This document shows, piece after piece, positions 37,101-40,100 of a stretch of DNA of 55,188 nucleotides. A program made the position numbers. Positions within the stretch are counted from its first letter, which is position 1. Every line of letters starts with the position of its first letter. This stretch comes from a virus (taxonomy: Duplodnaviria > Heunggongvirae > Uroviricota > Caudoviricetes), in the IMG/VR virus record IMGVR_UViG_2850802633_000006. One strand, 5' to 3'.

Positions 37101-40100
37101 CGATGATCAGCAAATCCATTGACGCATAACGCTCAATAACTTCATCCGCTGTTTTTTCGCTGTCATTCCGCCAGCAATTTTTCACAGCACGGGTAAGGCG
37201 CATCACGTCGGTGATCTCCACACTGGCCAGATAGTTACGGATGATGTGTTTTGCCATAGCCACAGCCAGATGATTTTTTCCGGTACCACAACTGCCGGTC
37301 ATAACAAGACTGGTACCGTTCTCCAGCATATCTGGCCAGTTCTCCGCATAGCGGCGACAGGCCGCAAGATTTCTGGCTGCGCCAGGATTAACCTCCAGAT
37401 AATTATCAAACTCGCAGTCCCGAAAACGCAGGGCAATTCCGGCGTTATCAGTCAGCTCTTCCGCCTTGATGGACGACAGCTCCATGGTCAAATCGTTGGC
37501 CTCAGCGATTAAGCAGTCAGGGCAGCATGAAATTTCTTCTCTGTCCTCGCCATTACGATCGCTCCACACCAGTATATGCGTGTGATATTCGCCATGTTTT
37601 TCGCAATATCCGCGACCTTCACGCATCAGGCAGGAACGATAAGGCCATGGCTTTTCGCCCTTCTGAGCAAATGCAATCTCTGCCCGTAACTCATCCATTC
37701 GCGCCTGTAGTCTTTTTTGTTGTTCACGCAGGTTAAACGTCATCATCGCTGTCACCTCAGAATGTCAGTTTGTCACTGGATTTACCGAATTTGTCAGACA
37801 TGGCTCCCAGGCCAGCCAGGACATCGACCTGTCGCTGTCGCCCACCTCTGGGAGCGGCTGGCTGTTGCCAGAAGTCTTCGAAGTGACGATCGGGTCCAAA
37901 GAACGTCGCAGCCTGCTTCACGAACTGTGTGCCGGTATTTCCTGTGGCACGTACCCAGGCAGCATAGCGTTTCACGCCATCAAGCATGGCTTCAGGTTTT
38001 ATTCCCTCCCTGAGCCGGGCTTTCCAGGCTTTGAAGGCTGCGGATTTTGAGTTACCACCAGCACGTTTTGGATATTCCTGCCAGGCCTGTTCAAATTCCG
38101 GTGAATATTCCTGTCGGGAAGAACGCGCTGGTGCAGACGCGTCAGCGGATGCGCCAATAGTGTTTTTACTCTCTGTAGTATTCTCTGAAGTAATCTCTGT
38201 TGTATTCTCTGTAAGATCGAAATTGGTTTTCCCTTCTCCGCGGCGAGGGGTTTCCCGTGTCCGCGGTGAAGGCTTTCCCTCCTCCGCGAAATTGGGTTTT
38301 ACAGTTTCCCGAAAACGGGTTTCCCCATTTCGGGAAAACTGATTGTTTTCATTGATAATTTCATTAAGGCGCTCACAATCTATACGGTAGAACATTTTGT
38401 GCTCAAGACGCTTGTTGGTTTCAACCAAAATGCCTCTGGACACAAGATGCTTACGCGCTACAGCCTGTTGTTCAAATGTAAGTCCGGTTTCGTGTTGTAT
38501 CTCTTCACGCGTTTTATGTACGCCTTCCGCTGCATGTGCTTTATCCTGCCAGTAAAAAATCTGACCAAAGAAAATAACAGCGTGCGGACGGTAATGCTGC
38601 CAACTTACTGATTTAGTGTATGATGGTGATTTTAAGGTGCTTGCGTGGCTTCCATTTCCATCAGATGTCCTTCCTGCTCCGCTACTGAAGGCGTGGTGCG
38701 TAACGGCAAAAGCACTGCCGGACATCAGCGCTATCTCTGCTCTCATTGCCGTAAAACATGGCAACTACAGTTCACTTACACCGCCTCTCAGCCCGGTACG
38801 CACCAGAAAATCATTGATATGGCCATGAATGGCGTCGGATGTCGCGCCAGCGCACGCATTATGGGCGTTGGCCTCAACACGGTTTTACGTCACTTAAAAA
38901 ACTCAGGCCGCAGTCGGTAACCTCGCGCATACAACCGGGCAGTGATGTGATTGTCTGCGCTGAAATGGACGAACATTGGGGCTACGTCGGTGCTAAATCA
39001 CGTCAGCGCTGGCTGTTTTACGCGTATGACAGGATACGGAGGACGGTTGTGGCGCACGTCTTCGGTGAACGCACTCTGGCCACACTGGAGCGTCTTCTGA
39101 GCCTGCTGTCGGCCTTTGAGGTCGTGGTATGGATGACGGATGGCTGGCCGCTGTATGAATCACGCCTGAAGGGAAAGCTGCACGTTATCAGCAAGCGTTA
39201 CACTCAGCGCATTGAGCGACATAATCTGAATCTGAGACAACATCTGGCAAGGCTGGGACGGAAGTCACTGTCGTTCTCAAAATCGGTGGAGCTGCATGAC
39301 AAGGTCATCGGGCATTATCTGAACATAAAACACTATCAGTAAGTTGGAGTCATTACCCCTTTGTTGAGATTGCAAACATCTAATGCGGCAATGGCTGACA
39401 ATCGCTCCATTCTCAACGCGCACAGCATAGAGGCCATTTTCACTAAAAATTTCACGCAATTCTTCGATTTTCATCTTCAGAATCCTTCCAGATAAATAGC
39501 TCTCCCCTGTTCGGGGTCCATCCCTCTTCTCCCTGCGCGCTACTTAAGTGAGTCGATTCTATCTGCGAAGGTGCGCGAATCAAATTCACCGGAAATAAAC
39601 AACAAAAAACCCGCCGAAACGCTGAGAGATCACAGCGATGGGCGGGTTAAGTGCGGGTGCGTTGAGGATGCCTGACACATCAGAGGTGGGCGGGGATGGG
39701 ATCAGCTCCCCACCCGGTCACTCTTACTTCCTGGATTCGTAGTCTACGAAGACAGCGACCTCCGTCTGGCCGGTTCGGATTCGTACCTCACAGAGGTCTT
39801 TCCTCGTTACCAGTGCCGTCACTATGACGGTTAAACAGATGACGATCAGGGCGATTAACATCGCCTTTTGCTGCTTCATAGCCTGCTTCTCCTTGCCTTT
39901 CGGCATGTAAGAGGCTAACCTACATGTGCAAAGCATGAAATTGGCCTCAGATTAATGTTAAGCGTCTTGCCGGACGCGTAATGTTAACTGGGGCTTTTCT
40001 CTATCTGCCTTTTGGTGTTCATGCCTGAAGCAGATAGCCTCAAGCACCCGCAGTCATTCTACTTACCTCGCCAATATGAAATCAATCAGAAAGGTGCCCC

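Follow-up and report, generated by a model that had tools for sequence, protein, structure and literature searches.

We describe a copy of the insertion sequence (IS) IS1 that lacks a target-site duplication and appears to mark a deletion between two phage modules. It lies in a 55,188-nucleotide stretch of DNA recorded as a virus of the Caudoviricetes (IMG/VR record IMGVR_UViG_2850802633_000006), called the window below. The window belongs to Shigella flexneri 93-3063 (CP026768.1), a strain of serotype Y (PMC9455713). Comparison with the sister strain S. flexneri 61-4982 (CP026792.1, locus L031) leaves us with high confidence that some IS1-associated deletion took place at this element, which we refer to as copy 1. 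The account that we favor, with somewhat more belief than doubt, is a strain-specific 7,568-bp deletion that left copy 1 as its scar and arose through insertion and subsequent intramolecular transposition, within a prophage region that was already fused and decaying.

A deletion joint occupied by IS1

The DNA on either side of copy 1 is matched base for base in 61-4982. Window positions 36000-38589 correspond to 11747-9158 of the 61-4982 locus (2590/2590 nucleotides identical) and positions 39358-40946 correspond to 1589-1 (1589/1589 identical). In 61-4982 these two flanks are colinear, share one orientation and lie 7,568 bp apart (1590-9157) with no IS1 between them. Homology ends at window position 38589 and resumes at 39358, the exact termini of the IS1, and no microhomology is present. 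We thus find what characterizes an adjacent deletion: colinear flanks split by DNA that is absent here, end points that coincide with IS termini and a single IS left behind. The genes interrupted at the joint give the event its direction. The O-like replication initiator on the left is 302 amino acids (aa) long when intact, as in 61-4982 (9082-9990) and in loci L001 and L037, and the rem-like gene on the right is 95 aa long when intact, as in 61-4982 (1473-1760), in L002 and L005 and in several other Shigella loci. Because both genes are intact in several Shigella and Escherichia coli relatives, the window represents the derived state, from which 7,568 bp were lost and in which one IS1 remains at the joint. 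Sequence comparison firmly indicates the deletion itself, its exact ends, its polarity and its restriction to 93-3063. A preliminary description of this DNA had remarked that the O-like gene beside copy 1 lacks its 5' end. We find that its first 76 nucleotides are absent relative to the intact gene, with similarity to 61-4982 ending at position 9158 of that locus, and the comparison with intact relatives that the description had called for supports its reading of copy 1 as a rearrangement scar.

The gene order of 61-4982 reveals what the interval contained. On a single strand, this locus encodes QueH, hokD, rem (95 aa), a 123-aa DUF1367 fragment, IS600, YbcO, a DUF1133 fragment and IS911, followed by a 249-aa primase remnant, a phiTE_015-family gene, NinB, NinE, a Gp49/HTH pair, Ash and Rha, and then by a 77-aa open reading frame (ORF), the O-like gene (302 aa), DnaC-like and DnaB-like genes, NinH, Q and lysis genes. 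Missing along with the interval are the start of the O-like gene, the 77-aa ORF, the Rha/Ash antirepressor genes, the Gp49/HTH toxin-antitoxin pair, NinE, NinB, the primase remnant, one IS911, the DUF1133 fragment, YbcO, one IS600, the DUF1367 fragment and the 3' end of rem. The only parts of this 7.6-kb segment that recur within the window are IS911 and IS600. The joint also gives rise to two hybrid ORFs that read across the ends of copy 1 (Table 1). The 329-aa ORF is on record in CP026768.1 only, and the 65-aa ORF is likewise on record in that single contig. Searches of 5,426 complete E. coli genomes, of species-representative genomes and of JGI metagenomes turned up neither joint, though these collections hold little or no Shigella, which makes the negatives weak. 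No relative with copy 1 at the same site and a matching duplication was found in these collections or among the recorded ORFs.

Copy 1 is itself a complete element. A pattern search recovered both terminal inverted repeats, where zero matches are expected by chance. Measured against the ~23-bp imperfect repeats of the IS1 family (GGTRATG...CCAACTTACTGAT), copy 1 has no mismatch at its left end and three at its right end, and its length of 768 bp agrees with the ~768 bp of the family. Both insA (91 aa) and insB (167 aa) are intact, as is the A6C frameshift motif, which lies at IS1 position 307 in this copy as well as in the second IS1 of the window, copy 2. The IS1-family domains PF03811, PF12759 and PF03400 match the product of copy 2, with PF03400 also recorded for copy 1. 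Gene calls derived from GenBank give the 232-aa frameshifted InsAB' product for copy 2 only and just a 97-aa fragment for copy 1, though insA, insB and the A6C motif are intact in both. The flanks of copy 1 are what sets it apart. Its left flank reads ...GCGTGCGGAC and its right flank starts CCTTTGTTG, so that the adjoining 9-mers, CGTGCGGAC and CCTTTGTTG, are unrelated, as the preliminary description had it. In the wider context (...AACAGCGTGCGGAC, then IS1, then CCTTTGTTGAGATTG), flank comparison detected, apart from a single chance base, no duplication of 8 bp, 9 bp or any other length. The missing 8-9-bp duplication reflects the history of copy 1 and not its identity as an IS1.

Copy 2 serves as an internal control. 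It is inverted relative to copy 1 and differs from it at 3 of 768 positions, which account for InsA T52M, InsB R5C and one silent change. It is bracketed on both sides by a perfect 9-bp duplication, CTATGCTTG, again in agreement with the preliminary description. Its empty target site is uninterrupted in 13 loci of Shigella and 2 of E. coli, and copy 2 is therefore a private, strain-specific product of simple insertion. An 8-9-bp duplication also borders each of six further full-length IS1 copies in the loci retrieved for comparison, leaving copy 1 as the sole exception among the IS1 copies examined. In E. coli FDAARGOS_943 (L005, 35462-36229), an IS1 sits at the end of ydaE, the gene that also houses copy 2, at a target, TGAAATCTG, unlike that of copy 2 (CTATGCTTG). 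IS1 has thus hit this small gene twice, independently.

Routes to the deletion

In the scenario that we favor, a single IS1 would first have entered one of the two interrupted genes, the O-like initiator or rem, generating a 9-bp duplication. Its transposase would then have linked whichever IS1 end pointed toward the other gene with a target that lay 7.6 kb off in the same DNA molecule, an intramolecular transposition of the kind classically known as recA-independent 'IS1-promoted adjacent deletion'. The intervening DNA would have left as an origin-less circle and been lost. The outcome would be one IS1 with one old and one new flank, hence with no duplication. We infer the transposase-mediated route because it requires two events, as opposed to three for recombination between two insertions. 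The same end sequence could have come about in another way, wherein two direct IS1 copies had independently entered both genes, the O-like gene with duplication of CGTGCGGAC and rem with duplication of CCTTTGTTG, and RecA-dependent recombination between them deleted one copy together with the 7.6 kb. We regard this as a real but lesser possibility. It yields exactly the product that we observe, and deletions that run from one homologous IS copy to another are said to be common in Shigella (PMC7373316), yet no relative carries an IS1 at either site. Several points weigh against our preferred route. Transposase-driven deletion and recombination between direct IS1 copies leave identical sequences, which the window cannot tell apart. 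Our preference is a modest one because 93-3063 gained a further private IS1, copy 2, only 8.6 kb away; IS1 insertion in this region thus seems frequent, and two nearby insertions are not far-fetched. The collections searched yielded no progenitor genome in which either end point bears an IS1 and its duplication, and short-read assemblies break at IS1. Lastly, with ~75 kb of CP026768.1 read, we infer that the 7.6-kb segment was lost from the genome, as opposed to relocated within it.

Other explanations fare much worse. In the long-read assembly of 93-3063, two IS1 copies might have been merged into one and the sequence separating them left out, as IS-rich genomes misjoin easily and the joint is present in one assembly only. 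Against this, a repeat of 768 bp is far below the typical length of a long read, the flanks are base-perfect up to the IS ends, and adjacent IS-rich stretches agree with independent assemblies of relatives; such an artefact is very improbable. We give similarly little credence, even when the two are taken together, to a one-step event or to a co-opted remnant. In the former, the two ends of a single incoming IS1 may have engaged targets 7.6 kb apart, coupling insertion to simultaneous deletion with no resident IS1 intermediate. In the latter, the IS1-fused remnant operon, in which the 329-aa hybrid ORF precedes intact DnaC-like and DnaB-like genes, might be expressed and kept because it serves the host. 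None of our observations favors either. An end point of an inversion is ruled out by the colinear, same-orientation flanks, as an inversion would join the 3' part of the O-like gene to the 3' part of rem rather than to its 5' part. A duplicative inversion linking copies 1 and 2, considered because copy 2 is inverted and lies 8.6 kb away, was also rejected: copy 2 has a direct duplication, its empty site is intact in relatives, and the interval is colinear with relatives.

Prophage modules and their older joints

The preliminary description had further proposed an IS1-mediated deletion or fusion of two prophages. The deletion stands, with 7,568 bp replaced by IS1 relative to 61-4982. The proposal that IS1 fused the prophages does not, as the two modules are already joined in sister strains. 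Were IS1 the primary joint, it would have brought together two once-separate prophages through the deletion or inversion of all that lay between, chromosomal genes included. Such a reading draws on the presence of two replication modules in the window and on E. coli FDAARGOS_943, in which two prophages are separate and in tandem, flanking ybhC-pgl. There, prophage 1 is lambda-like, carries ipaHa and lies beside ybhC, and prophage 2 carries ipaHb and a rem/hokD/yda early region and lies between pgl and ybhA. Four observations speak against it. In the loci L031, L020 and L032 of sister S. flexneri genomes, all of which lack copy 1, the rem/hokD/ydaS-V module and the O/DnaC/DnaB module are a few kb apart, linked on one strand via IS911/IS600. 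The chromosomal segment ybhJ-pgl-ipaHb is retained beside the window (L013). An IS600 joint at window position 52578 is common to at least seven other genomes. Finally, the sequences that flank IS1 are a mere 7.6 kb apart in the sister strain. We therefore consider it extremely unlikely that IS1 was the original fusion joint. Because sister genomes without copy 1 already link both modules, the prophage fusion predates the IS1 event, and the IS1-linked deletion erased an older IS911/IS600 joint.

Sequence beyond the window points to further rearrangement. Past its right end, the source genome encodes ipaHb and then, in inverted orientation, pgl, ybhD, ybhH, ybhI and ybhJ, the locus as read ending in ybhJ, before ybhC. 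The order ybhJ...pgl-ipaHb-DUF4376-IS600-recE'-IS600-ydaE...cI...hokD is found in at least seven other Shigella genomes. Window positions 52579-55188, with DUF4376 and ipaHb, are inverted relative to FDAARGOS_943. At 52578/52579, IS600 abuts a DUF4376/tail-fibre gene that is cut 5 nucleotides into its start, and the start of ipaHb lies 15 nucleotides outside the window. The IS600 joint at 52578/52579 is an old rearrangement joint. The inverted ipaHb/DUF4376 segment at the right end had led to a two-inversion model with end points at IS1 and a reciprocal IS1 joint ~25-30 kb beyond the window. For the IS1, this model was rejected on account of the 61-4982 flanks, which are colinear and 7.6 kb apart; the inversion topology belongs to the older IS600/IS911 joints that are common to many S. 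flexneri genomes. A simple deletion of everything between the tandem prophages is ruled out by the retained ybhJ-pgl-ipaHb segment. Loci L020, L031, L032 and L033 all differ from one another, and the earlier history of the region is complex.

Table 1. Features around the two IS1 copies of the window
Feature	Position	Strand	Remarks
DnaB-like replicative helicase	35480..36871	-	463 aa, intact; PF03796, PF00772
DnaC/IstB-like helicase loader	36868..37746	-	292 aa, intact; PF01695
O-like replication-initiator remnant	37757..38589	-	first 76 nt of 909-nt gene missing
Hybrid ORF, 329 aa	37757..38746	-	starts within IS1, leaves through its left end into the O-like remnant
IS1 copy 1	38590..39357	+	768 bp; insA/insB intact; no target-site duplication; at deletion joint
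Hybrid ORF, 65 aa	39277..39474	-	rem N-terminus running into right end of IS1
rem-like remnant	39358..39474	-	first 39 of 95 codons kept; 171 nt of 3' end missing; PF27490 (Rem)
hokD-type toxin gene	39724..39936	-	PF01848; annotated hokD in E. coli relatives
QueH-like gene	40107..40772	-	PF02677
DUF977 gene	41355..41777	-	PF06163
ydaV-like DnaC loader	41792..42538	-	pseudogene, split into 117-aa and 113-aa ORFs; phrog_50 on both pieces
ydaU-like replication initiator	42684..43328	-	214 aa; phrog_2509
ydaT-like gene	43406-43828	-	ydaT/cro/cI block (43406..44523): PF06254, PF14549, PF01381; PHROGs
cro-like gene	43812-44039	-	same basis as block
cI-like repressor gene	44116-44523	+	divergent; same basis as block
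IS1 copy 2 with 9-bp duplication	47976..48761 (IS1: 47985-48752)	-	inserted in ydaE; internal control

Two replication modules meet at copy 1, as the preliminary description had recognized, one of the O-like/DnaC/DnaB type and the other of the ydaU/ydaV type. Each has the arrangement of a lambdoid replication module, wherein an initiator lies directly upstream of a DnaC-type loader and downstream of an immunity region. For the left module this native context, downstream of cro/cI-type regulators, is found in the enteroinvasive E. coli (EIEC) strain CFSAN029787; in the right module, the ydaU-like gene and the split ydaV-like gene lie downstream of cI, cro and ydaT. Both modules are defective in the window, and the right one is decayed.

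The O-like remnant of the left module matches phrog_270 and phrog_9773 ('replication initiation O-like'), and a protein identical to the DnaC-like loader is present in many S. flexneri genomes. In 2a-type S. flexneri, the match to the window breaks off at 37766; there, IS911 directly adjoins the DnaC-like gene, and nothing is left of the O-like gene. In seven loci from 2a-type and other S. flexneri (L026-L030, L034, L035), the IS911 is found at position 9981 each, equivalent to window position 37766. The O-like gene of 2a-type strains was lost independently, in an event mediated by IS911, so that IS-driven change recurs at this locus. Leftward beyond DnaB are NinH, Q, four tRNA genes, lysis genes, an IS600/IS911 nest and a lambda-like late region with an ipaH gene. 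The tRNA cluster (34048-34358), situated between the Q antiterminator and a holin gene, comprises Gly-TCC, Thr-TGT, Arg-TCT and a gene with a CAT anticodon that is annotated as tRNA-Ile in E. coli relatives. The IS nest (24865-31464) separates the lysis genes from the terminase end of the late region. Within it are an IS600 in two pieces (24865-25951 and 27257-27442) interrupted by a ~1.3-kb insert, an IS911 (28635-29884) whose site is empty in the sister strain 61-4982, and a further IS600 at ~30198-31464. In S. flexneri relatives (L033, 3475-9990; L037), a 968-aa toprim primase, NinB and NinE are encoded upstream of Rha, the 77-aa ORF, O, DnaC and DnaB, which suggests that the composite region has a third replication function. 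EIEC CFSAN029787 carries the O/DnaC/DnaB prophage in intact form, with ordinary cro/cI-type regulators upstream and integrated beside mlrA.

To the right of copy 1 lies the Rac-like module (hok, ydaS/T/U/dnaC-like) of the preliminary description, with the rem-like remnant directly adjoining the IS1. The ydaV-like loader is intact at 248 aa in L017, L019, L023 and E. coli. Its split form recurs across many S. flexneri genomes, and its decay is for this reason old. The ydaU-like initiator is 214 aa in the window and 260 aa in E. coli FDAARGOS_943. Further right, at 45532-46556, is an IS2-like element whose ORFs measure 121 aa and 233 aa; as several relatives have a 301-aa version of the second, the copy in the window appears truncated.

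IS-driven erosion of a composite prophage region

IS1-promoted adjacent deletions are known from classical E. coli genetics and from later work on intramolecular IS1 transposition. According to Reif and Saedler (1975), IS1 reportedly promotes recA-independent adjacent deletions in the gal region. The E. coli adjacent deletions and the one described here have much in common: the IS is kept at the joint, the deletion starts from the exact IS end, no duplication is present, and the flanks are colinear in an undeleted relative, all in the same neighborhood (gal-bio/ybh). Unlike the classical E. coli cases, which were selected in the laboratory, the present one comes from a comparison of natural isolates, and both its recA independence and its prior IS1 are putative. 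Recombination between direct IS copies also leaves one IS with hybrid flanks and no duplication, but, unlike adjacent deletion, it requires two prior insertions.

The broader setting is well documented. Every Shigella species has undergone expansion of IS1, IS2, IS4, IS600 and IS911, IS1 being the commonest, and the IS of Shigella cause strain-to-strain variation, gene disruption, deletions and rearrangements (PMC7373316). IS-driven degradation and rearrangement of Shigella genomes have been treated by Hawkey et al. 2020 (PMC7373316) and Seferbekova et al. 2021 (PMC8072062). The window fits this picture, with IS1, IS600, IS911 and an IS2-like element, IS sites that vary by strain, and deletions and rearrangements at IS. 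Nothing of substance sets it apart from such erosion, except that cryptic prophage genes are hit instead of metabolic genes. Its right module resembles the E. coli K-12 cryptic prophages Rac and Qin in its rem, hokD and ydaS/T/U/V-type genes. The left module is 99% identical to the intact EIEC prophage at mlrA in CFSAN029787, with which it shares O-like/DnaC/DnaB, NinH, Q and the tRNA cluster, as well as lysis genes, lambda-like late genes and ipaH. Unlike Rac, Qin and the intact EIEC prophage, both modules of the window are fragmentary, riddled with IS and joined together.

The event is of a kind already known, ordinary IS-driven erosion that affects cryptic prophage genes only, and its significance beyond bookkeeping is small. 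What it offers is a base-level record of a single recent step, confined to one strain, in the IS-driven erosion of a composite S. flexneri prophage region that carries ipaH and lies near gal-bio. The absence of a target duplication proved a reliable flag for such events, as one was present at copy 2 and at all six further IS1 copies inspected. An IS that now sits at the boundary between two phage modules need not have created that boundary; here, the original joint lay at IS911/IS600 and was removed by the later deletion.

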